This document shows, piece after piece, positions 304 through 17,358 of a stretch of DNA of 58,070 nucleotides. The stretch's first letter is position 1, and the number at the start of each line of letters is the position of its first letter. The notes beneath the pieces are model-generated. The model was given only the letters and a program-made list of their open reading frames with translations. It ran no database searches and was not told the origin of the DNA. Location: IMG/VR virus record IMGVR_UViG_3300048583_000114, positions 1 through 58,070 of that record. The stretch is one strand, 5' to 3'. A program made the position numbers and the translations under genes. The DNA is from a virus (lineage: Duplodnaviria > Caudoviricetes).

Positions 304-603
304 GTCAGATGTCCAGTACGTCGCAGAAGTTGGAGAACCGGGTGCGGTTGACCATGATCGTGTTGCGCTCGGCCACGGTCAGGCCAAACCAGTCGAGAAT
401 CTGGTCATACACCTCCTCCAGCGAGCGATACGGGTACATGATCCCGCCGAGGTTGATGTCGCGGGTCCCCGTGCCATTGACAGAGATCGCTGCCGGCCAG
501 GGGCCGAGGATGCCGGTGCTTCCATCCACGCCAGCGCCACGCACTTTCCCGCCCGCAATGAACATGGCATAGGCCCATGCGTGATCCGTTCCAGCGCCGC
601 CCT
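1..603. repeat. Terminal direct repeat, copy 1 (diverged allele of 57468-58070); indicates a circular or permuted complete genome
   Basis: Ungapped match to 57468-58070; identical over 1-126 and 557-603, about 52 substitutions between (hand count). Confidence 0.95.
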
Positions 604-1777
604 GAGTCCACAATGTCCGGCCGAAATCGGTAGGGTCCGTGACCACTACGTCATCCCACACCCCGATGGCGATCATCGCGTTGCGGAATGCGGCAAGTCC
701 GTCGCCATACTGCTGCGCGAGGGATGTATAAGTGCCGTCACCCTCGAATCGGACCTTCTCGCTACCGTGCGTGTCGTAGTCTCCGATGGACGCAGCGATT
801 GCCATTCGGATGGGCAAAGCGCCTGCGTTTGCATCCACCGCCGCCTCGATCACCCGAGCGATGCGATGGAACATCGAATACCACCACCCCTTATCCGTCA
901 CTTGCCCGAACGCGGCATCGACTCCGTACAGCGGACCCCCCGCTCCGGGAATCGTGATCTGCACCGGATTCAGGAGGTTGCTGCCATCAAGGGCGGTCTG
1001 GAATGCAGACTTCCACCGCTGATGACGCGGGCTTGTCGGGCTGGCTGCAAGCGAGATCGCTTCCGCCAGCTTGTTCCGCACGTTCACGGATGTCGCTGTG
1101 ACGTGCATCGTCATGGCGACCTGCAGCCCGGCAGAAGACCCACTCGGACCAGCAGGCCCGAATCGGGGCAACGTGAACGGGGAGATCACATCACCCCGGT
1201 GCATCTGGTAGTGCGGAACATTCGGGTTGATGACGATGGTGTGAAGGTTCGAGAACGATGTCGCCAGTTCGTTCGTCGAGGACACTGTGTCCATCACCTG
1301 TCCGATCCATCCTGCGCTGCGCTTATCCAGAGTACCGTTCATGTTGATGTGATGCTCTTGAAAAGCATCGTGCGCACCAACCCCCAAAGGGAGACGGTAC
1401 GCCGTCCGGTAGTCAGGAATATCCGTCAGCCGGTCAGGCAGGGGTTCTTCCAGCACTCCACAATGCGGGACGATGGCGAGGTCGCCTTCAGTCCACGGCT
1501 TGCCTGCGCCAATCAGCCCTGAATAGTTTGGGTGCAAAGCAAAGTCCGGGCTGGTTCCGAGCTTGTTTGCCAGTGCGGCGAGGACGACCGCTTGGCTGTA
1601 CACCCCTGCGTTCTCGCCGTACCGATGCGCGGGACGATTTTGCCACCACTCCTCCAACTGGCTGCGGGTGGGGGCGTTCGTTGTCCCGAGTGGGACGAGT
1701 TTCGCGAAAAGACTCTCGCCACCGAATTTATAAGTGGTGACGAGGAAGCGATTCCCGGTAAGCGGAGATTGCGGCAT
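305..1777 (-). CDS. DUF1501-family protein (no Tat signal)
   Basis: Motifs LVTTYKFGG, GDYDTHG, TDFGRTL, GTDHAW, GGKVRG match the DUF1501 pattern (FLxGG, GGFDTH, SEFGRT, GTDHGW, GG.V.GG); ATG at 1777 overlaps the upstream TAA. Confidence 0.8.
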   Translation of the reverse strand: MPQSPLTGNRFLVTTYKFGGESLFAKLVPLGTTNAPTRSQLEEWWQNRPAHRYGENAGVYSQAVVLAALANKLGTSPDFALHPNYSGLIGAGKPWTEGDLAIVPHCGVLEEPLPDRLTDIPDYRTAYRLPLGVGAHDAFQEHHINMNGTLDKRSAGWIGQVMDTVSSTNELATSFSNLHTIVINPNVPHYQMHRGDVISPFTLPRFGPAGPSGSSAGLQVAMTMHVTATSVNVRNKLAEAISLAASPTSPRHQRWKSAFQTALDGSNLLNPVQITIPGAGGPLYGVDAAFGQVTDKGWWYSMFHRIARVIEAAVDANAGALPIRMAIAASIGDYDTHGSEKVRFEGDGTYTSLAQQYGDGLAAFRNAMIAIGVWDDVVVTDPTDFGRTLWTQGGAGTDHAWAYAMFIAGGKVRGAGVDGSTGILGPWPAAISVNGTGTRDINLGGIMYPYRSLEEVYDQILDWFGLTVAERNTIMVNRTRFSNFCDVLDI

Positions 1778-4080
1778 TAGATTTGCTCCATTGCTTGCGG
1801 CAGCATGTCTACGCAGGACAGGGCCAGCGCGGCGCGGCGATCCAACTTCATCGCGTTGTCCGGTGCTCCGTACTCGGCCGCCGAATCCAGCGCCGCTTGA
1901 TCCAGAATCTCGATCACCTTCAGCCGCGCAGCCGAGGGAATGGTCCGCCCGCACAAGACTACTTCGATGGCGCGGTCTACTAGCTGCGCATTTGTTGGGG
2001 ATCCAGCGACCATATAGGTCATGTCCCACACACCATGACGCCGGGTGAGAATCCCGGCATACGTTCCGTTCTTGCTGTGGTGTATCGAACCGCGAGGCAT
2101 TCCGTTCCAGAGCGCGAGAACACCCTCGGGGGTCCAGAGGCTTGCCGCCCGACCGAGATACCCATCGTCTATTTCGTAATCAAACGGGTAGTCGTTGAAC
2201 ACCGTGGCAGTGATGCCCCACTCGGCGGGGACTTTGCCTGGGCCGTTGTTGGCGGAGCCGGAGTCAACCCATCCGGTGTTCTCGACGCCCTCGAATAGCG
2301 AGGCGTTCAGGGGTCTCGCAAACTCGAAGGTGTACGTACCGGTGGTGCCGGTGTAGGCGGTGTTGAGGGTCAGCGTGGTGTTTGTTGCCCACGTTGCTGT
2401 GGCGGTAGAGAGTAGTCCTGTTCCACTGACCCGCCATGAGCCGTTGTGTGCCTGCAGCGGAAGATTGTCTCCAGCCGCCACAGTAGCGGTGGTGGAGCCG
2501 TTCGTCACGCTGACAGAACAGGTATACCCAAACTCAGCAACATCCCGCTGCTCTGCCGCACGCCACGCGGACGCGAGTGCCAGATGAATGTCGAGAGCGC
2601 GTCCGAACCGATCCGCGTCCTTGCTTGCAATCGTGCCCCGCGCCTCGGGGTCGAGGTAGATCGCGCGCATGATGTCGCGGACACTGCCACGCACGCCGAG
2701 CCCGTTGTCCTGCGCCGCCGCTACCACCCGCCGGACATACTGCGGGGTCGGATTCTCCGTCACCAACTCGCGAATGAAATGCAGGCAGAAGTAGACGAGG
2801 AATGTGTCGTGGTTGTACAGCCAATCGCAGACTTCTTCGATCTTGCCGTAGACGTTTTCGCCTTGAACGAACTTGGTTCCGAGCGTTGGGACCCCGCCGT
2901 AAGCCGCACGGGTGATCCCTGGAGTCGGCATGTCCACCGCGCCCCGGTAGTGATCTGTTGCCGTGCAAACAAGTTCCGCCGACGTGCCACTAAGGTTGAG
3001 GCCAGAAAACAGCCGCGCCGCATTCAGCACATCCAGATAGACGTAGGTAGGAATACGGTTTCCAAACGCATCCAACTTAAACGAGCCGTCAAGGTTTAGT
3101 TCCCACTGGCCGAGAGTGAACAACTGGAACAGTTCTCGGACCCAGTTCTGATTTGGCTCAACGTCATAAAGCTGAAACGCCGGTTCACGCCCTTTGTTGT
3201 TGATGTTGTCGAGAAACCACTGCGGGTAGCGCGCATACGCCAGCCATCGAACGTAGTCTTGAAGCGTGCCGTCCATCATGTCGAACAGGCTATTCTGCGT
3301 GCGCTCCCACGCGCGGCTCGTTGTCTCCGACAGGATGTTGCCGATTGCCAACTGCTTGTTCCAAGCGGCGACGATCCGCCCCCTGAACGTGTCCGGGCTG
3401 TGTCGCCAGACTAGCGAACGGTACTGCCACGAGGCAGCGAGCGAACGGCGGCCCGCGTTATCTCCCGCACCAGCTCCCTCGGTTATTACAGGGAATGTTC
3501 CTGCAGTGGCCGGAAATGCTCCCCCGTGGTAGCGGTAAGCGCCGTCGTACAGCAAGTCAAATTCTTCGCCAGCCGTCCGCCCGGACGACAGGAGCGTTTG
3601 CGCCTCCCCGGGGAACTCCCCGAAGCCAGCTTGCCGCAGGAACCGACGAGAGTCGGACAGGTCGGCAAACGCCACGTCGAAACCGGGGTCGTAGACCGGG
3701 TTGTATTCCGGCCCGGTGTAGCGCGCGTACACCCGAACGGTGCTGGTGCCACTGCCGCTGATCACACGCGCCTGAATGCCGACGATGCCGCGGGCGGTGA
3801 TCACCTCGTAGGTGTTCATCGCGTCTTCACGCAGGACTTCCCAACTCGCGTGGTCCGGGTCGAGCAGCGCGTTCACGTCGGTCGTGGTGTATATCGCGAC
3901 GATGTTTCCGTCCGGGTTCTTTTCGACCGTGACCGGGCGCGAGACCTCGTCGATGTCCCAGATCACGCCAGTCCCGTTGGCGGTCAACGTGCTGTCGATC
4001 GCGTCGCCGTTGGAGACGGCGGAGCCGCCCCCGCCGGTGCCTGTCTCTAGCTTTAGTCGAACCCTCGAACGGATGCCCAT
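1777..4080 (-). CDS. DUF1800-family protein with extra N-terminal and internal beta-rich modules
   Basis: RFLRQAGFG, PNQNWVRELFQLFTLG..LNLDGS, AARLFSG, LVTENPTPQYVRRV, RAIYLDPEAR are DUF1800 hallmarks; directly upstream of DUF1501. Confidence 0.8.
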   Translation of the reverse strand: MGIRSRVRLKLETGTGGGGSAVSNGDAIDSTLTANGTGVIWDIDEVSRPVTVEKNPDGNIVAIYTTTDVNALLDPDHASWEVLREDAMNTYEVITARGIVGIQARVISGSGTSTVRVYARYTGPEYNPVYDPGFDVAFADLSDSRRFLRQAGFGEFPGEAQTLLSSGRTAGEEFDLLYDGAYRYHGGAFPATAGTFPVITEGAGAGDNAGRRSLAASWQYRSLVWRHSPDTFRGRIVAAWNKQLAIGNILSETTSRAWERTQNSLFDMMDGTLQDYVRWLAYARYPQWFLDNINNKGREPAFQLYDVEPNQNWVRELFQLFTLGQWELNLDGSFKLDAFGNRIPTYVYLDVLNAARLFSGLNLSGTSAELVCTATDHYRGAVDMPTPGITRAAYGGVPTLGTKFVQGENVYGKIEEVCDWLYNHDTFLVYFCLHFIRELVTENPTPQYVRRVVAAAQDNGLGVRGSVRDIMRAIYLDPEARGTIASKDADRFGRALDIHLALASAWRAAEQRDVAEFGYTCSVSVTNGSTTATVAAGDNLPLQAHNGSWRVSGTGLLSTATATWATNTTLTLNTAYTGTTGTYTFEFARPLNASLFEGVENTGWVDSGSANNGPGKVPAEWGITATVFNDYPFDYEIDDGYLGRAASLWTPEGVLALWNGMPRGSIHHSKNGTYAGILTRRHGVWDMTYMVAGSPTNAQLVDRAIEVVLCGRTIPSAARLKVIEILDQAALDSAAEYGAPDNAMKLDRRAALALSCVDMLPQAMEQI

Positions 4081-4082: not shown

Positions 4083-4484
4083 TTACGCCTCCGGCAGCAC
4101 GTCGCCGAAGCCGGCGGCAGACACATCGACCTGTGTGCTCGTCGCGCAGGTGGCGACCAGCTCGCAGCTCTCGAACTCCGACAGCAGCAGGATCATGACC
4201 ATGTGCCCGTTTGCAGCCAGCGTGGTTGGGTCCGCCGAGGCGAACATGGTCACCGGGCCGGGGGTCTGGAAGTCGGCCGTCTGCGCCGGCGCATGCGCGC
4301 TGGGAACGACGCCGCCCCGGGTGGCCCGCAACCCGACGGTGAAGCCGGTCAGCGCCGCTGCGCCCACGTTCTCCAGCTGCACCGACATCGAGTCGACGTT
4401 CTGTGCATCGAGCACGGCCAGCACGGTCGGCGTCGAGGTGACTGTGATGCGCTGCCGGGTGTATTCACGAACGAGCCTGCTCAT
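4083..4484 (-). CDS. Hypothetical beta-rich protein, possibly virion-associated
   Basis: 133-aa ORF tightly packed in the late operon, AGGAG RBS. Confidence 0.7.
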   Translation of the reverse strand: MSRLVREYTRQRITVTSTPTVLAVLDAQNVDSMSVQLENVGAAALTGFTVGLRATRGGVVPSAHAPAQTADFQTPGPVTMFASADPTTLAANGHMVMILLLSEFESCELVATCATSTQVDVSAAGFGDVLPEA

Positions 4485-4492: not shown

Positions 4493-4765
4493 CTACTTGT
4501 AGTAAGCCACGTTGACGACGGCAGTGCCGGTCTGGGAGATGATGCGGAGTTTCTGCAGCTGGGTGCTGAACACCCGCTCCACGTTGACCGCCAACGGCAT
4601 ACCGATCAGCGTGGTGGGGTCCACGCCGTCATCCCGCCAGCGGATGGCGTTTCCTGTGCACACGATGTGCGCGATGGTGGTGCCCGTGGGCACGGTCAGC
4701 GAGGCGGCCGTGGTCACGCTAAGCTGCTGGTAGCCATTCGGAATGGCGCAATCGAACGGAGTCAT
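4493..4765 (-). CDS. Small conserved phage protein, possibly virion-associated
   Basis: 90 aa, GYQQL...IRWRDDGVDPT...GMPL; follows the portal gene. Confidence 0.7.
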   Translation of the reverse strand: MTPFDCAIPNGYQQLSVTTAASLTVPTGTTIAHIVCTGNAIRWRDDGVDPTTLIGMPLAVNVERVFSTQLQKLRIISQTGTAVVNVAYYK

Positions 4766-4775: not shown

Positions 4776-6839
4776 CTAGGTAGCTGGCCCGGAGACCATC
4801 TGCTGTGCTTCCTGCGCCGGCGTCTGCGGCATCTCGGGCTTGGGCGGCTGGTTCTCCTGCCCCTGCCCCGTCTTCATCCCTTCGAGTTGGCCCTGCATCT
4901 GCTGCATCTGGGCCATGTGCGCCTGAAACTCCTCGACGCTGGGCACGGTGCCCGGCGCGAACTCCAGCCCCTTGGCCAGCTCGTGCAGCACGTTCACCAG
5001 CAGCGTCGGGGGCACCAGCTGCGACTGGATCGCCGGCAGCGCGATCTGCAGAAACTCAAGGCGCCGCTGGTTGAGCAGCTCCTTCAGCAGCAGGCCGCTC
5101 GCGCCCTTGGCTTGGATGAACGCATCGCCCTTGATCGACTCGTCCTCGCCATAGAGCATCAGCGAATAGTAGAGCCGCTCGATCGTCGGCACGATGATGT
5201 CGGTGTCGATGTTGTTGGCGACGTTCTTGATGCCCTTGTTGGCCGCATTCATCAGCATCGACAGGCCGGCCGCGGTCCGCCCCGCGCCCCCCACGTGCTG
5301 GTCGCCCATCATGTAGCGCGGCAGCGACGAGAACTCGTCTGCCAGCACCGAGAACTTGTCGAACACGCCGACCAGCTCGGCCGCGTTGCTGCTGGGCTGG
5401 TAGAACTCCACCGGTGGGCGGGAATCCGCCGACCCGAAGTCGCCGCTCTGCACGACCCACGAGCGCAGCGGGAAAATCTGCCGGATGTCCTCGCCGGCCG
5501 CCATCCGATCCTTGTTGATCATGATCTGCGGGCCGGAGGCGAGCGACATGTTGTTCATCAGCGCCCGCACGGAGGCGTTGCACACGGCCTGCACGTCGCG
5601 CAACTGCTCGCCCAGCCCCACACCCCAGAACGACCCGGGGAGCTTCTCCCAACTCGTCACGCTGTAGGGCACGCGCGCCAGCGGGTCATGGTTCAGCAGC
5701 GCCTTGATTGTGTACGGCCCGACCACCCACACGTTGGCCGGGTATTCGAGGTCCGGGTCCAGCCCCTCGGGGTCCATGCCGAAGTCGATCAGCATCTGCC
5801 CCTGTATCCGCCCCCAGAACTCCAGCGCCTCGATCGTCGGGTGCGGGTCCGCCGAGCCCATGGGCGACTGGTTGCCCAGCGCAGAGGCTTCTGCCGAGTC
5901 GACTGACTGGTAGCTCGACAGCCCGGTCTGGCCGTACTGCGCGAGTGCTGCCCTGATCTGCGCCTCGTCGAACCCCGGAGAGCCGATCATGGAGGCCAAG
6001 TCCCCGCGGGTCAGCTTGTGCCGCTCGATCACGTACGAGTCGGTCACAGTGGCCGCCATCGGCGCCGGGTAGATGTTGAACGGCGACACCCGCTCGAACA
6101 CGTAGGTGAGCTGGTCCTGCACCTGCGGCACAGTCTTGCCCGTGGCCGGGTCGTCGGTCCACTTCACCCGCTTGCGATTCCTCACCACCGGACCCTTCAG
6201 GATGCACGCCTTGAAGGTGGTGATGTCGCTGATGCACTCCTCCAGCGCCGTGTAGAAGTGCCCCTCGACGAGGATGTCATCGACGGCGCGCTCGGCCGCC
6301 TCTGCCTTGTTCTGCGCCTCCTGCCGGGCCGCTTCCTTGGCCTGCTTGAGCAGCTGGGCATGCAACCCCTCCAGCTCGCTGGGGTGCGGCGCCGGCAGCC
6401 CTGCCGCCATGCCCTGTTCCACCATCTGCGCGATCATCTGATCGACTCGCGCGCCCACATCCTGCGGCAGCGACGGCTCCGGCGAGGGCTTGATCGTGAA
6501 CGGCCGCTCGATCTGGAGGTAGATGTCCTTCAGCCACGACTGCGCGCCGCGCATCTTGGTCGCCCCGACACGGCTGTAGATGTCGCTGCCGCCGGGAATC
6601 TGCCGGATGGCTTCCTTGACCTCGGGGTCATACTCGGCGTTGCGCATCCGCAGCGCACGCAGGAGGTCTTCCTCGTGGTGCATCTGCTTGGCCGTGCGAG
6701 CCGCCGAAAAGCACTTCTGCACGTGCATCGCCAAGCCTTGGACGACCGGGTCGGTCGACGGGGACCGAGCGTCCGCCTCGGCCCGCTCCTGCGCAACCAG
6801 CTGGTCGTTACTCAGTACGCGGAGCAGTCCTGCGCTCAT
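4776..6839 (-). CDS. Portal protein (podoviral, P22-like)
   Basis: 687 aa directly downstream of terminase; ERVSPFNIYP, PGSFWGVG, GRTAAGLSMLM motifs; Gln/Pro-rich tail. Confidence 0.88.
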   Translation of the reverse strand: MSAGLLRVLSNDQLVAQERAEADARSPSTDPVVQGLAMHVQKCFSAARTAKQMHHEEDLLRALRMRNAEYDPEVKEAIRQIPGGSDIYSRVGATKMRGAQSWLKDIYLQIERPFTIKPSPEPSLPQDVGARVDQMIAQMVEQGMAAGLPAPHPSELEGLHAQLLKQAKEAARQEAQNKAEAAERAVDDILVEGHFYTALEECISDITTFKACILKGPVVRNRKRVKWTDDPATGKTVPQVQDQLTYVFERVSPFNIYPAPMAATVTDSYVIERHKLTRGDLASMIGSPGFDEAQIRAALAQYGQTGLSSYQSVDSAEASALGNQSPMGSADPHPTIEALEFWGRIQGQMLIDFGMDPEGLDPDLEYPANVWVVGPYTIKALLNHDPLARVPYSVTSWEKLPGSFWGVGLGEQLRDVQAVCNASVRALMNNMSLASGPQIMINKDRMAAGEDIRQIFPLRSWVVQSGDFGSADSRPPVEFYQPSSNAAELVGVFDKFSVLADEFSSLPRYMMGDQHVGGAGRTAAGLSMLMNAANKGIKNVANNIDTDIIVPTIERLYYSLMLYGEDESIKGDAFIQAKGASGLLLKELLNQRRLEFLQIALPAIQSQLVPPTLLVNVLHELAKGLEFAPGTVPSVEEFQAHMAQMQQMQGQLEGMKTGQGQENQPPKPEMPQTPAQEAQQMVSGPAT

Positions 6840-6910: not shown

Positions 6911-8305
6911 CTATACAGCCCAGCGACGTGGGACAGGGCGGGGCGTTGGCGCAAACACCCGGGAGTGGCTGGCTGCCGGCCCGAGGAACCACAGGCAGAG
7001 GTACTGGAAGGCGTCGGCGATGTGCGAAGCGTCGTCGGCCTTGTTGGGCTCATCAGCGAGCGTCCCGCCCCGCCGGGTGGCGTACCGGTACTCCCCTGCC
7101 AGCGCGCGGATGAGCCGTGTGCACCGGGGGTCGATCAGCAGCCCCGCCCGCCCGTCGATGGCATTGGCGAGCAGCTTCTCCACGGCCGTCAGCCGGATGC
7201 CGATCCGGTTGCTGCTGGCGGGCTTCACGTCGAACCCGGCCTGCTGGAACACCTTGATGGGTGAAGACTCACTTACCCCCTCGCGGCTCACCGCTGCGGG
7301 GTCGATGATCACCCGCGGCTTCACGCCGCTGAAGTGGGTGGTGATGTAGGGCAGCACGCGGGTCTCGACGAAGCGCTCCATGCCCATGCGATCGTCCGGG
7401 TCGAGCGCGATCTCGCCGAGGATGTGGCGGGTGCCGCGCGGGGTAGTCTGGCCGAACACAGCCCGGGGGGTGAGCCCTGCGTCGACACCCATCACCAGCG
7501 GGTGCGAGTCGCTCCTGACAAATGTCAGATTGTCCTTGGCGACGTGGAAGTCGCGCACGAAGGTGTCCTTGAACACCGGCTGCCCTTCCTTCGACGTGCC
7601 GTACTCGCCGTCGATCATCACCCGGACGTACTCGTCGGAGCGCCCGACGGGGTTGTAGTAGCCGGTGGGCAGGTTCTCGATGTTCTCGGCCTGCGGACTG
7701 CGCCCGGAGGGCTGCTTGAACACGCCCCAGTCGTTGGGGATGTTCTTCTCCATCATGTTGTAGAGCCACGTCCCCACCGCCGGCGGGTTGGTGTCGGCGA
7801 TGATGTACTTGTAGGTCGCCCCCGGCCCCATCTTCTTCGACGGGTAGCGACCGATCCGGCCGGTCATGCCCTCGTAGATGTCCGGGTCGATCTCCCGGAA
7901 CTCGTTGAAGTACGCCCCGGTCACCTCCAGCGACAGCAGCTTGCTCACGTCGTCGGCGTCATCGAGCGCCATGAACATGATCTCGCTGTGCACGTCGTTG
8001 AACGAGAGCACGTACTCCTTGTCGGTGGAGCGCCACTTGCCGAAGATGCCCGGCGGTATCCAGTCAAGGAACGACCGGATGGTGGTCGTCTTCAGCATCG
8101 GCATGGTGTTCCGTACGACCACGAACCGGCTGCGCCGCATGCCGTCGTTGTCCGGCGCCTGCTGCATGGCGGCCATCACGTGGTGGATCAGGCACCCGGA
8201 GGACTTGCCCGAGCCCTGCGGCCCCATGATGACCTTCGTCTCCGACCGGTCGAGCATGAACCGCTTGACCGTCTCCGGTGGCTTGTAGTCGAGCTGGTAG
8301 GCCAT
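6911..8305 (-). CDS. terL: Terminase large subunit
   Basis: Walker A GPQGSGKS, Walker B GAYFNE, motif III DTNPP, nuclease GVDAG and HIADAFQY; start taken at ATG 8305, overlapping the upstream TGA. Confidence 0.93.
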   Translation of the reverse strand: MAYQLDYKPPETVKRFMLDRSETKVIMGPQGSGKSSGCLIHHVMAAMQQAPDNDGMRRSRFVVVRNTMPMLKTTTIRSFLDWIPPGIFGKWRSTDKEYVLSFNDVHSEIMFMALDDADDVSKLLSLEVTGAYFNEFREIDPDIYEGMTGRIGRYPSKKMGPGATYKYIIADTNPPAVGTWLYNMMEKNIPNDWGVFKQPSGRSPQAENIENLPTGYYNPVGRSDEYVRVMIDGEYGTSKEGQPVFKDTFVRDFHVAKDNLTFVRSDSHPLVMGVDAGLTPRAVFGQTTPRGTRHILGEIALDPDDRMGMERFVETRVLPYITTHFSGVKPRVIIDPAAVSREGVSESSPIKVFQQAGFDVKPASSNRIGIRLTAVEKLLANAIDGRAGLLIDPRCTRLIRALAGEYRYATRRGGTLADEPNKADDASHIADAFQYLCLWFLGPAASHSRVFAPTPRPVPRRWAV

Positions 8306-8616
8306 CAGAGCGAGGTCATGTCGACAAAGCTGCCGCACGACGGGCACACCGCCTGAAGGTGCTCGGTCAGGTAGAACAGGTCATTGCCGCATCCGCACGC
8401 CCAGATGCTGACATCGCCCGGCGGCCCGCAGGCACCGGTCATGATCCCGGTCTCCCGGTGGCACTGCGGGCACTCATAGTAGTCGTTCGCCGTCCCCACA
8501 GGAGCGACCAGAATCCACTCGTGCTTGCACGACAGGCAGCGCGCCGGGCCGGACAGGTGCGGGTTGCGCTCCTCGCGAGCCTTGCACAGGGAGATGATGT
8601 TGGGCTCGTCGCTCAT
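8305..8616 (-). CDS. Small Cys-rich (zinc-ribbon) protein
   Basis: CLSC, CPQC, CGCG, CPSC in 103 aa; coupled to both neighbours. Confidence 0.7.
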   Translation of the reverse strand: MSDEPNIISLCKAREERNPHLSGPARCLSCKHEWILVAPVGTANDYYECPQCHRETGIMTGACGPPGDVSIWACGCGNDLFYLTEHLQAVCPSCGSFVDMTSL

Positions 8617-9059
8617 CCGAGGTTGATGTTCACGGCGACCACGTTGCCCGAGCCGACCGACTCCTCGTTCTTGGGCTCGTAGCGCGCCCAGCGCACGGTG
8701 TTGGCGATCATCTTCTCCTTGACCGCCGGCGGCACGTCCGGGTTGTGGATCATCTCGTACTGCACTAGCAGCAGCTGCTCGGCCTGCATCCGCGCCTTGG
8801 CGACGAAGCCGTAGCCGTTCTCGCGCAGCTCCGCCCGGTACTCGTTCACCAGTCGACAGAACGCCGGGTCGTCGAGCGCTGCGATCACCTCCTCGAACCG
8901 ACGGTCGTTTTCCTCGCAGAACGCATTGATGTCGAGCGACAGCCCTTCCCGGTTGCGGGCAATGGCGAGCGCAAGCTCCCGTCGATCGAGGTCTTCGAGC
9001 TGGGTCTGCAGCGTGGAGCTGTAGGTCGAGGCCGTGGCTAGCGAATTGGCGCTGCTCAT
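8613..9059 (-). CDS. Putative terminase small subunit
   Basis: 148-aa helical protein upstream of TerL, ending VAVNINLG; positional inference. Confidence 0.55.
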   Translation of the reverse strand: MSSANSLATASTYSSTLQTQLEDLDRRELALAIARNREGLSLDINAFCEENDRRFEEVIAALDDPAFCRLVNEYRAELRENGYGFVAKARMQAEQLLLVQYEMIHNPDVPPAVKEKMIANTVRWARYEPKNEESVGSGNVVAVNINLG

Positions 9060-9536
9060 GGGGCTCCAGTATGAAAAAGCCGTCCCCGCCGCATCGGCCA
9101 GCCCGCGGCGGGCTCGCTGTCCGGTAAGGAGGGACCGGTGGCCTTATCGGGGACGCTGAAACACAGTATTTCGACTGTTCGACTGCTCGTCAAGGCCAGT
9201 TTCGGCTGTCCGGGGGTGGCGGAGGGGGCTCCGGTTGACCGTGCCCGCTCCGCCGAGTGGGATTCTAGGCGATTTCGTTGGCGAATGCGCACTGGGAGAC
9301 CCGTTTCGCGGTGGATACGGTGCGTGCGAAGGGGAGAAGTGGGGGAAAACGGGCGGGAATGGGACGGCGAAGGGCAAAAATGTGTTGTTTACCATGTTAC
9401 CGAAAGCTGTGGGAGGGGAAAAATTTGGGAGCTAGGGAATAACAGGTGCAGCGGGCCACCCCCCGGTGTCCGCATACCCCCCGTCGGCCCCTCGGCGAGC
9501 GCCGCGAGCGCCGCGAGCGCGGGCGCGCGTGGGTTC

Positions 9537-9617
9537 CTAACTATCATTACCCCGCAACAGAGCAACAAGCTAACTATCATCACTGCTCTGAACAGAGGAA
9601 CGCTTGCTAACTATCAT
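9537..9617. repeat. Iteron-like cluster A: 3 x CTAACTATCAT
   Basis: Exact copies at 9537, 9570, 9607, with AACAGAG in the spacers. Confidence 0.9.
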
Positions 9618-9726
9618 CGTGGTGGTTGCATGCAATCAATGCTTCACCTTCGGTGGTTTATCACGTACACTTCAGTTACCGTATGCATATCGCATACGGA
9701 CTTTCGTACTTCACGGAGACAACATC

Positions 9727-10386
9727 ATGTCCAAGGCAATCAAAGCAATCAACGTGTTCGCTGGCGTGTCGGCAGGCTCGATGGTCAAGGCAGGCGCCGC
9801 GGTCGATGCCGCAGCCGGAACGCTCACGGCGTTGGCAATCAAGGCAGGCGCAGCGATGGCGAAAGCCGCGCCGGTCCTGAACGCCGACACGCCCGATCTG
9901 TCAAAGGCGATCAACGCGCGGGTTCGGTCGTACTTCTCCGTTGAGATCGGCCGGAAAGCGGCCGACGGCGAGGTACCCGGATTGGATAACGCCATCCGGG
10001 CGCTGTCCCGCGCGTTGGTAATCTTCGCATCGGGCGACAAGGTGTCGCCGCATGTCACATTCCGTGAGTTTGTCGCGAAGGCGAAGGACGCCCGGACGGC
10101 ACTCGGCATCGGCCGCAAGGTCGCGGCCGGTAAGACGGCGCCGGATCAGACGTTGACCGGTGAACCCGCATCGCCGACGCTGTCGGAGGCCGCGGATTAC
10201 TTCGCTTCGCTGCGCGAGTCAACACCCGAGGTTCGGACACAAGTCGCAACGTGGCTGCTGCGCCACATGTCGGCCGAGTCGCGTACCGCGCTCCTGCTGT
10301 CGCTTCAGGCGACCCCGGACGGCAAGCCGAAAGGCAAACGCGCGCCGCGCACCGGCAGCAACGCGCCGGAAACCGCGCCGCTGTAG
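9727..10386 (+). CDS. Hypothetical Ala/Lys-rich protein (first plus-strand gene)
   Basis: GGAG RBS, ATG 9727 (MSKAIKAINV), 219 aa, followed by a terminator. Confidence 0.8.
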   Translation: MSKAIKAINVFAGVSAGSMVKAGAAVDAAAGTLTALAIKAGAAMAKAAPVLNADTPDLSKAINARVRSYFSVEIGRKAADGEVPGLDNAIRALSRALVIFASGDKVSPHVTFREFVAKAKDARTALGIGRKVAAGKTAPDQTLTGEPASPTLSEAADYFASLRESTPEVRTQVATWLLRHMSAESRTALLLSLQATPDGKPKGKRAPRTGSNAPETAPL

Positions 10387-10394
10387 TCCGCTTC

Positions 10395-10422
10395 ACCCCG
10401 GGCCGATCGGCCCGGGGTTTTT
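10395..10422 (+). terminator. Rho-independent terminator
   Basis: Perfect palindrome ACCCCGGGCCGATCGGCCCGGGGT followed by a T-run, just after the stop at 10386. Confidence 0.85.
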
Positions 10423-10436
10423 CGCCGGTGCCGGCA

Positions 10437-10543
10437 CTAACTATCATTGGTCTGAACAGTAGTGGCTCTAACTATCATTGGTCTGAACAGTAGTGGCTCT
10501 AACTATCATCTCCCCCTAGAACAGAGGACGCGCTAACTATCAT
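10437..10543. repeat. Iteron-like cluster B: 4 x CTAACTATCAT including two exact 31-bp tandem units
   Basis: Copies at 10437, 10468, 10499, 10533; CTAACTATCATTGGTCTGAACAGTAGTGGCT x2. Confidence 0.92.
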
Positions 10544-10575
10544 CGGCACGCAGCCCGATGACCCGGCGCCGCGCC

Positions 10576-10684
10576 CTTGGTTGCGCAACCAAGCCGCCTC
10601 GCAAGCCTCGGTGGTCGATGACGTTTGGCCCCGCGTTCTCACTTTGTGCGAACCGCCGCTTCTCACAGTGTGGTTGCGCAACCA
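10576..10684. promoter_or_regulatory. Two copies of the genome-wide palindrome TGGTTGCGCAACCA
   Basis: 10578-10591 (extends to the 18-bp CTTGGTTGCGCAACCAAG) and 10671-10684. Confidence 0.75.
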
Positions 10685-10870
10685 GCACAGTCGATGACGT
10701 TGGGCAGGGGTCGACCTAGTCTCCACCCAGCCGCGCGTCGCCCGCTAATGCAACTGAGTTGCGCGGAAAACGGGGCGGGCGTTACCACGCTGCTTGGTGA
10801 CGTTGGGCAGCAAACTGCGTTCCGCCGGTGTTGTGCTTGGTCGGCGGCGCAGTGTCGCCCAGCGGACGTG

Positions 10871-11195
10871 ACATAGTAAATGCGTACCATGGAGCTTCCC
10901 GGCCGCATGGTAATTTATGCCGCAAAAAGCCACTGGTATGGCAGAAAATTACCAGATTTCGTTGTTACTTTACGGGTCCGTCAGCCGGACCGGGAAGAAA
11001 ATTACCAGTACTCTGTTGTATACCATGCAGTGGTATCAGTGGTATCAGCGGTAACTACCGTGGTAGGTACTACACCTGAATCGGTAATTTTCTTCCGGGC
11101 TGGTCAAAAAATAGGCAATTTTGCCCCAAATATTACCATTCTTTGTTGCTGATACCATCGGGATCGGGAAGCTCCATGGTACGCAATTACTATGT
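10871..11195. repeat. Nested inverted repeats in an AT-richer non-coding segment
   Basis: 31-bp arms 10871-10901 / 11165-11195 (1 mismatch); inner perfect 14-bp arms 10993-11006 / 11083-11096. Confidence 0.9.
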
Positions 11196-11449
11196 TACCA
11201 TTTCGGGGCTTCGACAGATCGACTGAATAATCAATGGCTTAGGAAGGTAACTATTACGACTGATACTAATCTTTTAGGGGCTAATATGCTAATTTTCTTC
11301 CCGCTCGACCAAGTAGGGTCCACATCTCTCGACTTTGTCTTGGGCTTACGGCCGCGAAAAGTAACATGGTAACAGCCGCCGCCGCCCGAAAAGTTGTCGA
11401 CCCTTGTTTTCCCGGCTGGCAGAAAATTACCATATTAACACCCCCTGTA

Positions 11450-11477
11450 TTGACATAACTACCCATTGTGGTATAAT
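11450..11477 (+). promoter_or_regulatory. Consensus sigma70 early promoter P1
   Basis: TTGACA-16 nt-TATAAT with extended -10 TG. Confidence 0.85.
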
Positions 11478-11597
11478 ACTAGCTGGGGTAAGAGACACCA
11501 CATTTTCCTCCCCCAAGTTGCTACCACCCCGGCCACCTTGGTTGCACGCAACCAAGCCGCCCCGCTCCCTCTTTTCTTCCCCACACAGGAGTCGATC

Positions 11598-11942
11598 ATG
11601 GGTCGTCCCCGCAAGCCTCAGTCCCCACCACTCGTTCTCACAATGTCGAAACAGCAGCGACGCAGCGTCGCCGCCGTGCAGACCATCGTCAACCAGCCCG
11701 TCGACCCCGTATCCAGTCGCATCCGCCACCTGCACATCGACCATCCCCCCGGCGCGTCCAACCTCTGCTTCATGTGCGCCGCCGACAGCGCCAAGAGTTT
11801 CATGCACATGCTGGCTGGCCCCGCCGAGCAGTTCGCCAGCGGTCGACACCCGCGCGTGACCGTTCGCACCGTTGGTTGCGCAACCAATGGCCGCTCGCTG
11901 TGCTCCAGCTGCGGCCGCCCGCTCGACGCCAGACTGACGTGA
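11598..11942 (+). CDS. Hypothetical protein with AT-hook-like GRPRK N-terminus and CxxC...CxxC
   Basis: AGGAG RBS, ATG 11598; MGRPRKP, CFMC, CSSC. Confidence 0.7.
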   Translation: MGRPRKPQSPPLVLTMSKQQRRSVAAVQTIVNQPVDPVSSRIRHLHIDHPPGASNLCFMCAADSAKSFMHMLAGPAEQFASGRHPRVTVRTVGCATNGRSLCSSCGRPLDARLT

Positions 11943-11963
11943 ACCTGCGCAAGGAGATCGACA

Positions 11964-12266
11964 ATGCCAGTCCCCAGTAGCTACAGGCTGCAACCAGCCG
12001 ACCGGGTGATGCTCGAACGCCTGTTCCTCATGTGCCAGATGGCAGGCCATTACGTGTTTCACCCCCTCGACCGCGAACCGTTCGTGCGCTGCTTCATCCT
12101 CGACTTCGCCCCGAACAGCATCTTCAGCAGTGAACACGTCGACGTGTCCATCTTCAACGGCCATCTGATCGTCGAGCGGGGCGAGGCAATGACCGCCGGA
12201 GATACCGTCGTCCGCGCGCAGAACCTGCTCGCCCCGATGATGTGCGCCCTGCACACCAGCCCCTGA
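11964..12266 (+). CDS. MAG-motif family protein 1
   Basis: LERLFLMCQMAGHY; AAGGAG RBS. Confidence 0.8.
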   Translation: MPVPSSYRLQPADRVMLERLFLMCQMAGHYVFHPLDREPFVRCFILDFAPNSIFSSEHVDVSIFNGHLIVERGEAMTAGDTVVRAQNLLAPMMCALHTSP

Positions 12267-12314
12267 CCCAGTAACACCCTTCACCCACGCTGCACCACCA
12301 CAGGAGACTTGACC

Positions 12315-12458
12315 ATGCGCTTCGCCATCACCCTGTTCCTGCTCGCCCTGCTCTCCGCCGGCGGCACCCACATCGCCCTCCAGTTCGCCGACCACCTGAT
12401 CGGCTACACGCTGGCCCAGCACACCATTGATCGCGCAACCAGTGGGATGCGGCCATGA
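12315..12458 (+). CDS. Small membrane or secreted peptide (47 aa)
   Basis: AGGAG RBS; MRFAITLFLLALLSAGG...; ATGA overlap with the next gene; not in the ORF track. Confidence 0.6.
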   Translation: MRFAITLFLLALLSAGGTHIALQFADHLIGYTLAQHTIDRATSGMRP

Positions 12459-12766
12459 CCATCCCCGAACAGATGCGCCACGTGGCAAACATGCTGCGCA
12501 TGGCCGGGCTGGAGGTCGCCTGCGCGGAGCTATCCTTCGAGTCGCTGAACGACATACCTGACGAGAGGCCGGCCGAGAAGGCGCGGCTGTGGGTCTACCC
12601 CAAGGGCGACAGCTTCATCGGCTCCGCGACGGTGTGGTTCTATGCCAATCGACCCGTGCGGGTATCGGACGGAGCCAGCCAGCGCAGCGCGCGCACGCTT
12701 GTCGACGTTGTCGTCGGCATCTTCAACGCATCGACCTATGGAGCACACGGCCATGCCCACCCCTGA
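12455..12766 (+). CDS. MAG-motif family protein 2
   Basis: MRHVANMLRMAGLEV. Confidence 0.8.
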   Translation: MTIPEQMRHVANMLRMAGLEVACAELSFESLNDIPDERPAEKARLWVYPKGDSFIGSATVWFYANRPVRVSDGASQRSARTLVDVVVGIFNASTYGAHGHAHP

Positions 12767-13361
12767 CCACAACACCCCCGCCCACCACATGCGCATCCGC
12801 GCCCTCAAGGAGATCATCCGTCGACCGTACGACGGTCTCTATCATCGGCGCTTGCTGATGGCCGACGGCGCACTGATGTGCCCGGAGTGCGCATACGACA
12901 ACTACAAGCCGATCCTGCAGGCTTGCGCGCAGAGCGCCTACGGCACCCGCAACGACTGGCTGTGCGAGGAACACATCGTCACCGACACGTCTCACTGGCA
13001 CGGCCGCGACGACACCGGTGAGAATTTTCCCTGCTGCGTGCAATGCCAAGAACTGCTGCCGGCCAACTACACCGCGGCGCAGCGGCAGCGGGACTGGTCG
13101 CTGAACGCACGGCTGTACGACATGCTGGTCATGGCCGGCAAGGACGAACGACTGGGCAGCAACGCTCGCAAGTACCGGTCGATCGTCTACTTCGACATGG
13201 ACCCGCGCAGTAGCGACTCGACGGACTTGGTCACGGTCGCCATGGTCAAGGGCACGCTGCGCTACCTGCATGTCCACTGGTCGGTCGCCCCCGCCGTGCA
13301 TGCCCTGATCGAACCCATGGTCGCAGCACTGGTTGCGCAACCAGAGGAGACACAGCCATGA
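12753..13361 (+). CDS. Zn-finger-like N-domain fused to MAG-motif domain (member 3)
   Basis: CPEC...CVQC followed by ARLYDMLVMAGKD; GGAG RBS before ATG 12753. Confidence 0.75.
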   Translation: MPTPDHNTPAHHMRIRALKEIIRRPYDGLYHRRLLMADGALMCPECAYDNYKPILQACAQSAYGTRNDWLCEEHIVTDTSHWHGRDDTGENFPCCVQCQELLPANYTAAQRQRDWSLNARLYDMLVMAGKDERLGSNARKYRSIVYFDMDPRSSDSTDLVTVAMVKGTLRYLHVHWSVAPAVHALIEPMVAALVAQPEETQP

Positions 13362-13471
13362 CCTTCGACGAGATGGATCGCTGCATTAAGCGCCTGCAGA
13401 CCGTGCAGCGCATGGTCGCCCAGCTGCGGGCCGAGGATGCTGCCAACGACAACGAGGAGACCCAGTCATGA
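13358..13471 (+). CDS. Small coiled-coil peptide (37 aa)
   Basis: GAGGAG RBS; MTFDEMDRCIKRLQTVQRMV...; ATGA overlaps at both ends. Confidence 0.55.
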   Translation: MTFDEMDRCIKRLQTVQRMVAQLRAEDAANDNEETQS

Positions 13472-14100
13472 CCAACATCGACATCTGCGAACGCATCAAG
13501 GACATCTGCACCATGGCCGGCGTCCCGGTCGAGTACGCCAAGCCGGACTGGCACTACACGCAGGTGCCACGCTTGGGAGAGGACTGCCGTGCGTTCTTCC
13601 AGATCGACAACAAGGGACGGCTGTACGTGGCCGTGGATCACGAAGACCCCGCGGTGCGCTCACTGGTGGAGAATGCCTACCAGCTGGTGACCTCCAGCGT
13701 GACGAGCTTTACTATCATCGAGCCGGAGCCGCCGCATGTGCCATCCGCAGATGCGCGCAGCCGGACTGACGGGGGCCTGTCCCTACTGCTGTCCGACCAG
13801 TGGGGCAGCGAGATGCCCCGCGGGTTCGTCACCCAGATCGACCTGCGCACCTTCTGGGGCATTCGCCCGACGGACGTGGCCATCTGCTCGCAGCCGGACC
13901 ACCCGCACGTGTGGGACGCATGGCAAGACATCGTCGACCGCGCCATCCACCGGGTGAACATCGACGGGCAGACGTACGACTTCTACCTGTACGAGAACGG
14001 CAACCTTTGGCTGGCGTGCAACAAGCTGCTCACGGCAGAAGAACGTCGCTCGCTCTACGATGATTGCGCAACCAGCGAGTACGACGAGGAGGACGCATGA
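13468..14100 (+). CDS. MAG-motif domain fused to a C-terminal acidic domain (member 4)
   Basis: ICERIKDICTMAGVP; 210 aa. Confidence 0.8.
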   Translation: MTNIDICERIKDICTMAGVPVEYAKPDWHYTQVPRLGEDCRAFFQIDNKGRLYVAVDHEDPAVRSLVENAYQLVTSSVTSFTIIEPEPPHVPSADARSRTDGGLSLLLSDQWGSEMPRGFVTQIDLRTFWGIRPTDVAICSQPDHPHVWDAWQDIVDRAIHRVNIDGQTYDFYLYENGNLWLACNKLLTAEERRSLYDDCATSEYDEEDA

Positions 14101-14483
14101 ACCCGTTGGATGAAATAGACAAGCAGGCCGATGTGATCCGGCGCGCTGCCGACATGATGTGCATGGCCGGGTTGTTCCCGTCTGTGGGAGGCACGGACTA
14201 CCCGAACAAGCTGTCGAGTGAGGTGCTGGCGAGGCGCGGCAACCTGTGGGTCAGGGAACGGCGCGAGGACTTAATCACGGAGTCGTACACCGTGATGTTC
14301 GACTTCCACTCGCGGTCGATCTCCGTGCGCAAGGACGGCGCCAGCGGGCAGTACACGGAACAGCTGCGGGCGGGCCATGTGCGGTTCGCCGTGCACGACA
14401 CTGCCATCTACTCAAAGGGTAACGACGAAGCGCTGCGGCACATGGTCCACGAGGCGCACCGGCTGATTAGGGAGGAATCATGA
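14097..14483 (+). CDS. MAG-motif family protein 5
   Basis: IRRAADMMCMAGLF; GGAGG RBS, ATGA overlap. Confidence 0.8.
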   Translation: MNPLDEIDKQADVIRRAADMMCMAGLFPSVGGTDYPNKLSSEVLARRGNLWVRERREDLITESYTVMFDFHSRSISVRKDGASGQYTEQLRAGHVRFAVHDTAIYSKGNDEALRHMVHEAHRLIREES

Positions 14484-14764
14484 CGACACCGATGAAGATC
14501 GTGCGCCTGCGACGCGATGCGGCCGCGTTGCTGGAGCAAGCAGGGACAATGCTGAATTTGGCTGGCATGCAAACTTCCTTCTATCCCTCGGTACCTGCGT
14601 TGTGGGTCCGCGCTGGAGATGACGATGGCGCCCTTGGCGGGCTACGAGTCGGGATTATCCATAGCAGAGGGGAGATCAGGTTCACTTTCTCAACCGACTG
14701 TGACGAGAAAGTTGCTGCGGTGGCTCGCTTGGTTGTAAAGCAACTGCGCAAGGAGGAATCATGA
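14480..14764 (+). CDS. MAG-motif family protein 6
   Basis: LEQAGTMLNLAGMQ. Confidence 0.8.
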   Translation: MTTPMKIVRLRRDAAALLEQAGTMLNLAGMQTSFYPSVPALWVRAGDDDGALGGLRVGIIHSRGEIRFTFSTDCDEKVAAVARLVVKQLRKEES

Positions 14765-15018
14765 CCCTTCACAAAGCCCAGCAGCGGGAGCTGCTGACCC
14801 GGCTGTACGCCATGTGCACCATGGCTGGGTATGGTTGCCGACTGGTGCCGGCGCTGCCTTCGTTGTGGGTGGCAGGCCGCGTGCGGGTAGACGTGCAACG
14901 CTCCGGCAAGCTACTCACATACCCGGTCGGATTGTTCGACGACGAGCCGGAGGAAGCCATCAAGATCATCGCGCTCGTCAAGGCGTCGTACGAACAACTG
15001 CGCAAGGAGTTCCCATGA
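14761..15018 (+). CDS. MAG-motif family protein 7
   Basis: LTRLYAMCTMAGYGC. Confidence 0.8.
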   Translation: MTLHKAQQRELLTRLYAMCTMAGYGCRLVPALPSLWVAGRVRVDVQRSGKLLTYPVGLFDDEPEEAIKIIALVKASYEQLRKEFP

Positions 15019-15305
15019 GGAAGCCTCCGCTCAAGGCCGCGCAACGACGCGCCATCCTGCACCGGCTGGTCTCCATGTACACCATGGCGGGGTACGACTG
15101 CGACACCGCCGACTCGTGCTACCTCGCGTGGGTTCGCCAGCGAGGCAGTACCTCACTCGACAGCTTGTTCGAGGGCGTGCGGCTGGAGGTCACCCGCGTC
15201 GGCAACGTGCAGAGTGAGGTGCACTTCGCGCGGGAGTTCCATGTGAAGGTGCTGGAGATGCTACGCGTGGCCGCGCCGATGATCTACAAGGAGGTGGTGG
15301 CATGA
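15015..15305 (+). CDS. MAG-motif family protein 8
   Basis: LHRLVSMYTMAGYDC. Confidence 0.8.
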   Translation: MRKPPLKAAQRRAILHRLVSMYTMAGYDCDTADSCYLAWVRQRGSTSLDSLFEGVRLEVTRVGNVQSEVHFAREFHVKVLEMLRVAAPMIYKEVVA

Positions 15306-15562
15306 GTGCCAAGCTACTGACGGACCGACTGGCGATGGTTGCGCAATCAGCGGGGTTCGAGCTGGAGTATCTGCCGCTGGTCGAGTCCCAGATCGAGTGC
15401 CCGCAGCTGATCATCAACAATCCGCGCAACGAGTATGAGTGGGTCTCCGTCTACATCGAAGATGGCGCGGGCAACCTGCGCGTGTTTTCATCTGTCGAGG
15501 GTATTTCGCTGCGGCATTGGACCCAGACGACTATCACCGCGCTGATGAAGGAGGAGACATGA
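15302..15562 (+). CDS. MAG-motif family protein 9
   Basis: TDRLAMVAQSAGFE. Confidence 0.78.
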   Translation: MSAKLLTDRLAMVAQSAGFELEYLPLVESQIECPQLIINNPRNEYEWVSVYIEDGAGNLRVFSSVEGISLRHWTQTTITALMKEET

Positions 15563-15837
15563 TCGCATCGTGGCAGGAACTGACCGACCGCGTGAAGCTC
15601 GCACTGGAGATGGCCGGATACGTGGTCGAGCACGCCCCGTATTCCGACTCGAAGCTGTACGTGTGCCCGCCTAGCTGGGATCGCACTGGGCGGTGGATAC
15701 CCGTGTGGGTAGGGGCATTCCCGGAGGTTTCCTCGTGTGGCGACAACGACCCTGACGCGGCCGTGCTGCGGCAGCTGGTCACCGACATCTACCGGCACCT
15801 GTTGGAGGAGACATGTGTTCACGAATACAGGCTTTAG
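15559..15837 (+). CDS. MAG-motif family protein 10
   Basis: TDRVKLALEMAGYV. Confidence 0.8.
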   Translation: MIASWQELTDRVKLALEMAGYVVEHAPYSDSKLYVCPPSWDRTGRWIPVWVGAFPEVSSCGDNDPDAAVLRQLVTDIYRHLLEETCVHEYRL

Positions 15838-17258: not shown

Positions 17259-17358
17259 ACATACTTCGCCGGGGAGTTTGCTGACTATTCGGCGAAGCGC
17301 AACACACTGGTTGCGCAACCAACACACTTCATATACTTCACATCAAGGAGATGCAAGC

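Follow-up and report, generated by a model that had tools for sequence, protein, structure and literature searches.

Why would a phage keep, in its late operon, a pair of genes whose bacterial relatives carry envelope-targeting signals? The question is raised by IMG/VR record IMGVR_UViG_3300048583_000114 (58,070 bases; recorded as linear, with a completeness of 93%), the whole of which was analysed and is called the window here. On its minus strand, at positions 305–4080, lie genes for a DUF1800 and a DUF1501 protein. Phages rarely keep large genes without use. DUF1800 and DUF1501 are very widespread bacterial families that always come as a pair, and the literature that we found, in the portions available, reports no function for either; the available parts of two papers give the function of the bacterial proteins as unknown (PMC5122149, PMC6653060), and those of a third mention in passing that a phage protein of 61 aa had a weak CDD hit (PMC5418858). 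A phage-borne DUF1800-DUF1501 pair is not described in the accessible text of the literature found on both families. Judged by its sequences, the window pair is a phage-adapted lineage of a bacterial DUF1800 lipoprotein and its partner DUF1501, which is exported by the twin-arginine translocation (Tat) route. Our preferred but tentative reading is that the phage pair, known from its genes alone, may serve as a virion-borne, non-catalytic envelope-binding module, that is, an accessory adhesin.

Both family assignments made by an earlier, sequence-only reading of this DNA held in profile hidden Markov model searches. The PF08811 (DUF1800) profile matched aa 147–731 of the larger protein at 84.1 bits against a cut-off of 26.1, covering profile positions 2–398 of 419. 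The PF07394 (DUF1501) match scored 59 bits against a cut-off of 27 and was limited to profile positions 250–340 of 390, at aa ∼330–425; a second profile search of the window scored DUF1501 at 59.7 bits. Neither whole protein had a family in PHROGs or NCBIfam. The translational coupling that had been proposed is exact: the DUF1800 stop codon (TAA, 1779–1777) and the DUF1501 start codon (ATG, 1777–1775) share the TAATG at 1779–1775, and both reading frames are intact. The features of the pair are as follows.

1777–4080, minus strand: DUF1800 protein, 767 aa (PF08811, E 1.5e-23)
3676–4080, minus strand: N-terminal beta-sandwich of DUF1800, aa 1–135 (from the predicted model; clade-specific)
2311–2535, minus strand: internal beta insert of DUF1800, aa ∼516–590 (from the predicted model and a structural match)
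305–1777, minus strand: DUF1501 protein, 490 aa (PF07394, E 6.1e-16)

A word-indexed search returned 9 close relatives of the DUF1800 protein (31–65% identity, 630–883 aa) and 15 of the DUF1501 protein (41–73% identity), all of them metagenomic. With the window included, the clade thus comprises about 10 DUF1800 and 16 DUF1501 sequences; after E 7e-91 the DUF1501 hit list resumes only at E 9e-14. In four cases a DUF1800 hit and a DUF1501 hit lay on contigs of equal size (11,227, 5,545, 42,694 and 48,882 bases), which suggests that the pair travels together. No clade member was found by scanning IMG/VR with clade-specific patterns or in a set of one genome per species (185,579 species), which held at most a distant Sphingomonadaceae gene, and a metagenome scan for the clade gave one 3.7-kb fragment. 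The sole viral DUF1800 in BFVD was that of an uncultured Caudovirales phage (A0A6J5M749, E 2.7e-20; P0011 below). A tblastn search of a phage collection (50,697 records) gave no match for DUF1800, DUF1501 or P0011. As a separate observation, a 1279-aa metagenomic protein (P0055) joins DUF1800 and then DUF1501 in one natural chain, its motifs canonical and its two parts not separated by a Tat leader; such a Rosetta-stone fusion hints that the two proteins may act as one unit.

One pointer to what the pair may have become is the DUF1501 active site. The predicted DUF1501 model (pLDDT 85, pTM 0.90; predicted local distance difference test and template-modelling scores) has the core fold of the alkaline phosphatase superfamily. 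Structure comparison with VIA-align gave 67 chains with Z of at least 8, among them choline sulfatase (7pth_A, Z 15.5 over 254 residues), PafA (5too, Z 15.3) and NPP (7mw8, Z 14.7), the last two with ∼250 residues aligned, and PbgA (6xlp, Z 13.2). We compared the active site of the 16 clade sequences with that of 25 bacterial DUF1501 proteins, of which the homology search supplied seven and a sample of 61 genomes in the class of genome G001, 14 of them with the family, the other 18. All 25 bacterial proteins have an Asp where strand beta1 ends (GGxD) and the Ser of a Ser-His motif at the start of the next helix. In the clade the Asp is replaced by Ser (14 sequences), Glu (one) or Asn (one), and the Ser by Ala in 16 of 16; the window protein reads GGES and GAHD where bacterial forms have GGxD and SH. 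By their position, the replaced residues would be those that bind metal and act as nucleophile in the superfamily. D335, H337, D398 and H399, in the DxH and (T/S)(D/E)H motifs, are invariant in all 23 sequences of our alignment A2, and the same metal-ligand motifs are kept in the 18 further bacterial proteins, two of which have E at 398. The clade also has new invariant acidic residues (E21, D333 and D381). The sequence-only reading had proposed a host envelope enzyme pair here, recruited as a virion appendage or as a lysis or surface-modifying module, roles that are both plausible candidates. Diverged members of bacterial envelope families in a late operon are indeed what we found, but the word enzyme is doubtful because the Asp and the Ser are replaced throughout the clade DUF1501 proteins. 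That reading had also listed TDFGRT, in place of SEFGRT, as a departure from consensus, but this lies within normal variation of the DUF1501 family.

The altered site is very unlikely to be a sign of decay. The stretch 57468–58070 of the window is a second copy of 1–603, 91% identical to it (52 mismatches in 603 ungapped positions). The genome is probably circular or permuted and ∼57.5 kb long, the assembly having passed once round the circle into a co-occurring strain variant. The last 99 DUF1501 codons are thereby present in two variants, which differ at 23 codons, 19 of them synonymously, with a ratio of nonsynonymous to synonymous polymorphism (pN/pS) of 0.08; the first 101 codons of the next gene, g116, differ at 24, of which 11 are synonymous (pN/pS 0.35). 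The testable part of DUF1501 is under strong purifying selection, and 95 columns are invariant across the 16 clade sequences.

Both proteins have also parted with the export signals of their bacterial counterparts. As had been claimed, the DUF1501 protein lacks a twin-arginine leader, and so does the whole clade: in alignment A2 the RR motif is present in 7/7 bacterial and 0/16 clade sequences, and Tat-like motifs occur in most of the 18 further bacterial proteins. The window DUF1800 has no signal peptide, lipobox or hydrophobic segment, whereas a lipobox (LxxCGGG) was present in each of the seven bacterial DUF1800 sequences read; a lipoprotein signal is typical of those members, and the Pfam definition of PF08811 does not include one. 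The loss of both export signals argues that the pair has been re-routed, and together with the loss of the two active-site residues it probably reflects a new use by the phage. Conserved positions of DUF1800 have changed as well. The window has PNQNWVRE where bacterial proteins have PDEN[FY]ARE, and this difference, unlike TDFGRT in DUF1501, was confirmed. With P0011 counted as phage, N310 is found in 10/11 phage-clade sequences against D in 23/24 bacterial ones, Q311 in 11/11 against E in 21/24, and the His of the HxxGxK stretch (H398) in 0/11 against 23/24.

While signals were lost, beta domains were gained. The predicted DUF1800 model (pLDDT 73) has beta strands at aa 30–119, ahead of the Pfam match that begins at aa 147, in agreement with the beta-rich N-terminal extension described earlier. 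A phmmer search with this domain against 1.84 billion representative sequences gave 15 hits. Six were single, full-domain matches at an N-terminus, five to DUF1800 proteins (P0007, P0008, P0106, P0108 and P0110) and one to a 222-aa protein without a Pfam hit (P0107). The other nine, to WD40-repeat or unrelated proteins and each split over several short stretches, were discarded as spurious. The domain has no Pfam family, a PDB sequence search with it gave nothing significant, and its structural matches were at background (YomS, Z 7.4; XepA, Z 6.7); its structural look-alikes in the ESM Atlas are mostly viral.

The internal insert (strands at aa 517–588) is also real; it is present in 9 of the 10 aligned clade sequences and absent from P0010. 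Its proposed likeness to tail-fibre modules was not confirmed: the insert had no Pfam family at E≤0.1, and its sole structural match with Z of at least 8, found by Foldseek as well, was chain 8eci_2, of 124 residues, from the capsid entry 8ECI of phage Bridgette (VIA-align Z 8.9, root-mean-square deviation 1.8 Å over 74 residues, 24% identity, model residues 516–680). Chain length and the preprint text fit this chain being the decoration protein Gp7. In the part of that preprint available, Gp7 of Arthrobacter phage Bridgette forms dimers round the pentons (bioRxiv 10.1101/2022.09.09.507160). In searches for a tail-fibre family or a virion-attachment domain, the whole DUF1800 protein matched no PHROG, and the insert and N-terminal domain matched no Pfam family. 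The N-terminus of the phage's own fibre (50218–52323; phrog_8469/6427) differs from that of DUF1800. For the helical core of DUF1800 there was no Foldseek match at E≤0.001, and the VIA-align list was filled by beta domains, so that the core was barely probed.

Under our preferred reading, both DUF1800 and DUF1501 would fold late in infection, inside the cytoplasm, and join in a putative complex. Through the added beta modules this complex would be mounted on the virion, with the capsid as the most likely site, where it would bind, and not cleave, the envelope component on which the bacterial pair acts. Invariant loss of Asp and Ser (16/16, compared with 0/25 in bacteria) combined with strong conservation fits binding without catalysis. 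A precedent within the same fold is PbgA, which we take to be a non-catalytic, lipopolysaccharide-binding protein. The order of head genes offers further support: portal, g90, g133 and the pair are followed by the scaffold gene and a capsid protein of phrog_267. A similar arrangement occurs in a second viral locus (L004), where a phrog_371 capsid gene (E 4.6e-125) and genes for proteins of 157 and 102 aa precede a g133 homologue (44% identity, E 1.9e-30), which stands directly upstream of a DUF1800 relative (57% identity). A g133-DUF1800 unit therefore adjoins head genes in two unrelated phage backbones. The match of the insert to a capsid-entry chain and the mostly viral look-alikes of the N-terminal domain favour this reading as well, as do two features of the other viral copies described below: the replacement of one of the two residues in some of them, and a position near virion or packaging genes in 10 of 17 loci. 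If this reading is true, the pair would represent a new class of virion-borne adhesin made from a pseudo-enzyme pair. The other features of the late block are listed in the order in which they are read round the genome.

6911–8347, minus strand: large terminase, upstream of the portal
4776–6839, minus strand: portal (PF23899 SU10_portal, E 4.5e-11; phrog_332, E 7.1e-58), the upstream anchor of the block
4493–4765, minus strand: g90, small beta-rich protein without a family; G+C content at third codon positions (GC3) 0.87
4083–4484, minus strand: g133, small beta protein that accompanies the DUF1800 gene, also in L004
1–303, minus strand: first 101 codons of g116, cut by the record end; matches 57468–57770
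57420–57770, minus strand: full copy of g116, 116 aa, acidic (isoelectric point, pI, 4.4), start MARIHAL
57067–57423, minus strand: TM118, holin-like 118-aa membrane protein with hydrophobic stretches; GTG start
56774–57067, minus strand: TM2, holin-like 97-aa membrane protein with a transmembrane segment; ATG start
56444–56704, minus strand: g86, open reading frame (ORF) for a small soluble protein, followed by the scaffold gene; GC3 0.80
55406–56440, minus strand: scaffold-position protein (phrog_13678, E 1.8e-24)
54463–55383, minus strand: major capsid protein (phrog_267, E 4e-50; PF25209), the downstream anchor of the block

The pair is thus downstream of the portal, as had been noted, with g90 and g133 between. 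Neither g90 nor g116 (the latter as its 136-aa ORF version) matched Pfam, PHROG or NCBIfam; g133 had no family in PHROGs or NCBIfam and nothing significant in a PDB sequence search. Look-alikes of g133 in the ESM Atlas are viral hypothetical proteins of 127–132 aa, and the nearest named families there, Bbp16 and XepA, are leads only. Paralogy among g90, g133 and the DUF1800 N-terminal domain was considered and rejected, since they showed no significant similarity (best match 15 residues, E 0.027). No promoters or terminators beyond chance were found inside the block. The GC3 of the pair is 0.72–0.73 and that of terminase, portal, g90 and g133 0.87–0.92, but values of 0.70–0.80 are common to g116, TM118, TM2, g86 and the scaffold gene. 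We therefore rejected the lower GC3 as a sign of recent transfer; it does not single out the pair.

The source is, on its gene content, an uncultured podovirus. Its structural genes resemble those of SU10/HMO-2011-type podoviruses, with SU10 portal and adaptor families, the phrog_267 capsid protein and a 2482-aa SLT internal protein. Among deposited phages, the nearest belong to the RHph_TM3_14A group of Rhizobium phages (portal 36% and capsid protein 53% identical). In RHph_TM3_14A three small genes alone separate portal and scaffold, and the protein encoded ahead of the capsid gene (343 aa) is 29% identical to the scaffold-position protein of the window. ARAGORN found no tRNA or tmRNA genes in the whole window. 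Elsewhere in the genome, the 2482-aa protein (36335–43783, minus strand) has an N-terminal SLT lytic-transglycosylase domain (PF01464, E 2e-26) and is probably an ejected internal virion protein. Directly after the capsid gene, a 147-aa minus-strand ORF (53998–54441, GC3 0.90) is overlapped by a plus-strand ORF of 163 aa; the former is probably a real gene, in the usual position for decoration or head completion. The early region, on the plus strand, holds a MoxR-like AAA ATPase (phrog_1297) near a DUF2201 metallopeptidase/VWA protein (ORFs 17278–18420 and 19250–20512), a pair of bacterial type.

Is the window alone among viruses in carrying such a pair? A family-wide alignment search of IMG/VR found 17 further DUF1800 loci (L031–L047): DUF1501 follows DUF1800 in 14 and is fused to it in one, so that the order is kept in 15 of 17, and contig ends truncate the remaining two. 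A Tat leader was found in L031 only. L034 has a lipobox and an adjoining transposase and looks like a prophage flank. By motif matching, with a pattern that four of the 17 loci fell outside, PDEN[FY]ARE is kept in 12. One catalytic-site residue is replaced in 6 of 15 viral DUF1501 proteins: Asp by Cys in L037 and L041, and Ser by Ala in L035, L043 and L045 or by Asn in L040. Counting the window clade, which stands alone on a long branch, a FastTree tree (midpoint-rooted, its support values unread) implies at least four separate replacements of Asp or Ser, all in signal-less viral proteins. That these losses recur, and only in viral copies without signals, gives a new comparative hint about the active site of DUF1501.

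The neighbours of these pairs were mixed. Genes for terminase, portal, capsid, decoration or tail-fibre proteins stand no more than a few genes from the pair in 10 of the 17 loci. L038, whose scaffold and capsid families match those of the window (capsid E 5.5e-74), has a canonical pair after the capsid gene. In L040 a holin gene (phrog_785, E 1.9e-25) and one further gene precede the pair, and the immediate neighbour of the pair in L032, L033 and L035 is a small transmembrane protein. In L041 the pair, also signal-less, is followed downstream by a lysis cassette (8737–11505): a 236-aa ORF, a 139-aa and a 109-aa membrane protein, and an Rz-like spanin (phrog_312, E 9e-20) whose gene embeds a lipoprotein-like ORF. 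With the portal as query, the nearest IMG/VR relative was another locus (L030, portal 56% identical). Its slot after the portal (10111–15868) holds two small phrog_644 proteins, a 525-aa protein of methyltransferase/MptE-like type, another methyltransferase and a protein with RCC1 repeats, which marks the portal-to-scaffold slot as a cargo hot spot. As further observations on these loci, L031 and L046 share one 322.5-kb contig that thus carries two pairs, the L031 pair with signal peptides and the L046 pair signal-less, with long extensions and next to tail-fibre genes. Long extra regions, of up to ∼650 aa, occur in DUF1800 or DUF1501 ORFs of L032 (3617–6907), L035 (7326–9188), L046 (5200–10339) and L047 (5443–10142); a search of PDB sequences with the C-terminal extension of the L032 DUF1501 found no significant match. 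L036 has, judged by eye, an N-terminal domain like a carbohydrate-binding module (CBM).

Several points weigh against a virion-borne adhesin. The clade is metagenomic only, with no relative in culture. Outside the clade no homologue of the N-terminal domain was detected, and the domain belongs to no known capsid- or tail-attachment family among those searched, and the Z of 8.9 for the insert, over a 74-residue beta domain, is modestly above background. Ser135 is presumably the nucleophile, an assignment that we base on the N-terminus of helix 136–145 and on knowledge of the superfamily and not on a residue-level superposition. In L030 the same slot is taken by non-structural cargo (methyltransferases and an MptE-like enzyme). 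The two holin-like genes chained directly downstream of the window pair, and the small membrane or lysis genes beside it in 5 of the 17 IMG/VR loci, fit a role in lysis better; lysis cassettes usually sit next to terminase or tail-fibre genes too.

A role in lysis is only slightly less likely than the adhesin. On this account the pair, g116, TM118 and TM2 form a lysis or egress cassette for a late envelope factor: signal-less proteins would fold in the cytoplasm and reach the periplasm once holin-type proteins open the inner membrane, there to work on a layer of the envelope, perhaps by destabilising the outer membrane, masking the receptor or destroying receptor on debris. The loss of both export signals follows the logic of canonical endolysins, and the genes form an unbroken chain from DUF1800 through TM2, with the TAATG of the pair, a 1-nt spacer to g116, GTGA between g116 and TM118 and TAATG between TM118 and TM2. 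TM118 has hydrophobic stretches at aa ∼11–27, 31–45, 56–70 and 86–100 and a basic C-terminal end (net charge +2 over the last 25 residues); TM2 has an N-terminal transmembrane segment, a net charge of +4 over its last 25 residues and a pI of 9.7. Both have the size, transmembrane segments and charged tails of holins. The sequence-only reading had passed over these two genes, and likewise the Asp and Ser replacements in DUF1501 and the overlap of the record ends. Among small late-operon ORFs with coding-like composition they are the sole candidates with multiple hydrophobic segments, and they appear to be the best holin candidates of the genome. A PHROGs scan of 54 window ORFs, with TM118 and TM2 outside it, found no dedicated endolysin, holin or spanin family apart from the SLT domain of the 2482-aa protein and a weak phrog_971 match (E 6.5e-4) in a 220-aa protein at 44874–45536. 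Nearby lysis or membrane genes in L040, L041, L032, L033 and L035 point the same way, and TM118 shares its last transmembrane motif with the 139-aa protein of L041 (pairwise E 0.003 over 21 residues), a weak lead; TM2 showed no similarity to the 109-aa protein of that locus.

Other evidence is hard to fit to a lytic enzyme. The clade DUF1501 lacks the Asp and Ser, its DUF1800 lacks D310, E311 and H398, and the alkaline phosphatase fold is not known as a peptidoglycan hydrolase fold. The two holin families tried (PF07332 and PF11351) had no match in the window, and a word search of 5.8 billion proteins found no TM118 homologue but TM118 itself. Lysis genes are not usually found between portal and scaffold, 12 of the 17 IMG/VR loci have no adjacent membrane protein, and TM118 and TM2 may be plain holins beside unrelated cargo. 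If the lysis reading is true, the pair would be a new lysis or egress factor. A more specific form of it, which we consider unlikely, makes DUF1800, DUF1501, g116, TM118 and TM2 a new phage egress cassette in which a signal-stripped periplasmic complex would enter the envelope through holin lesions and its re-tooled metal site would act on or clamp an outer-envelope component (lipopolysaccharide or another phospho- or sulfo-glycan), taking over the step of an endolysin partner or spanin. If true, it would give a first functional handle on two very large families.

It is equally improbable that the pair is cytoplasmic late cargo (a moron) that works inside the cell, for example by modifying virion proteins or a cytoplasmic metabolite, and never meets the envelope. 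Such cargo would need no export signal, and the slot does hold methyltransferases and an RCC1-repeat protein in L030, whereas RHph_TM3_14A has three small genes alone there; the GC3 of the pair, below that of the upstream genes, could be read likewise, but the neighbours g116, TM118, TM2, g86 and scaffold share it. The beta-sandwich modules, and the CBM-like or long extensions of other phage copies, are typical of surface-exposed proteins, and the bacterial relatives examined carry envelope-targeting signals. Finally, that the segment is an assembly chimera or a decaying host fragment without function, as its place at the end of a record classed as linear and its GC3 below that of the upstream neighbours might suggest, is extremely improbable: the end overlap of the record puts phage genes on both sides of the pair, the continuous upstream junction to g133 and portal and the downstream DUF1501-g116 junction, seen in two variants with 52/603 differences, rule out a host chimera, both frames are intact at a pN/pS of 0.08, and the 15 close DUF1501 and 9 close DUF1800 relatives include four pairs on equal-sized contigs.

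How does the pair compare with known systems? Lambda-type lysis cassettes likewise set signal-less proteins beside small basic-tailed membrane proteins in overlapping late genes, but the window block has no peptidoglycan-hydrolase fold, recognised holin family or spanin, and its predicted catalytic residues are replaced. The 124-residue chain of 8ECI, presumably Bridgette Gp7, is matched in structure by the DUF1800 insert. Gp7 is a free 125-aa protein, however, whereas the window domain is an insert in an 84-kDa helical protein and its capsid binding is putative. The IMG/VR pairs (L032–L047) are mostly signal-less, keep the pair order and stand beside virion, packaging or lysis genes, as in the window. 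Asp and Ser are both retained in most of them, the N-terminal domain and insert of the window clade are absent, and they are about as far from the window pair as bacterial sequences are (25–43% identity in the best segment). P0011 (CAB4142875.1) shares the PNQN motif and the absence of a lipobox and belongs with P0010 to a wider clade. It differs in being 568 aa long, without the insert and, as annotated, without an N-terminal beta domain, and it is 31% identical over 52% of the window DUF1800.

The bacterial DUF1800-DUF1501 pairs are alike in families and gene order, with DUF1800 preceding DUF1501 on one strand at 16 of the 18 alphaproteobacterial DUF1501 loci, and in the DUF1501 fold with its D335/H337 and D398/H399 motifs. 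The window pair, ∼23–25% identical to the nearest bacterial sequences aligned, departs from them in having no lipobox or Tat leader, in its N-terminal domain and insert, in PNQN for PDEN, and in its place in a phage late operon; its clade lacks the beta1 Asp and the Ser and has E21, D333 and D381. With signals removed, beta modules added and a predicted centre rewired under selection, the phage pair offers a compact, testable system for the role of the bacterial one.

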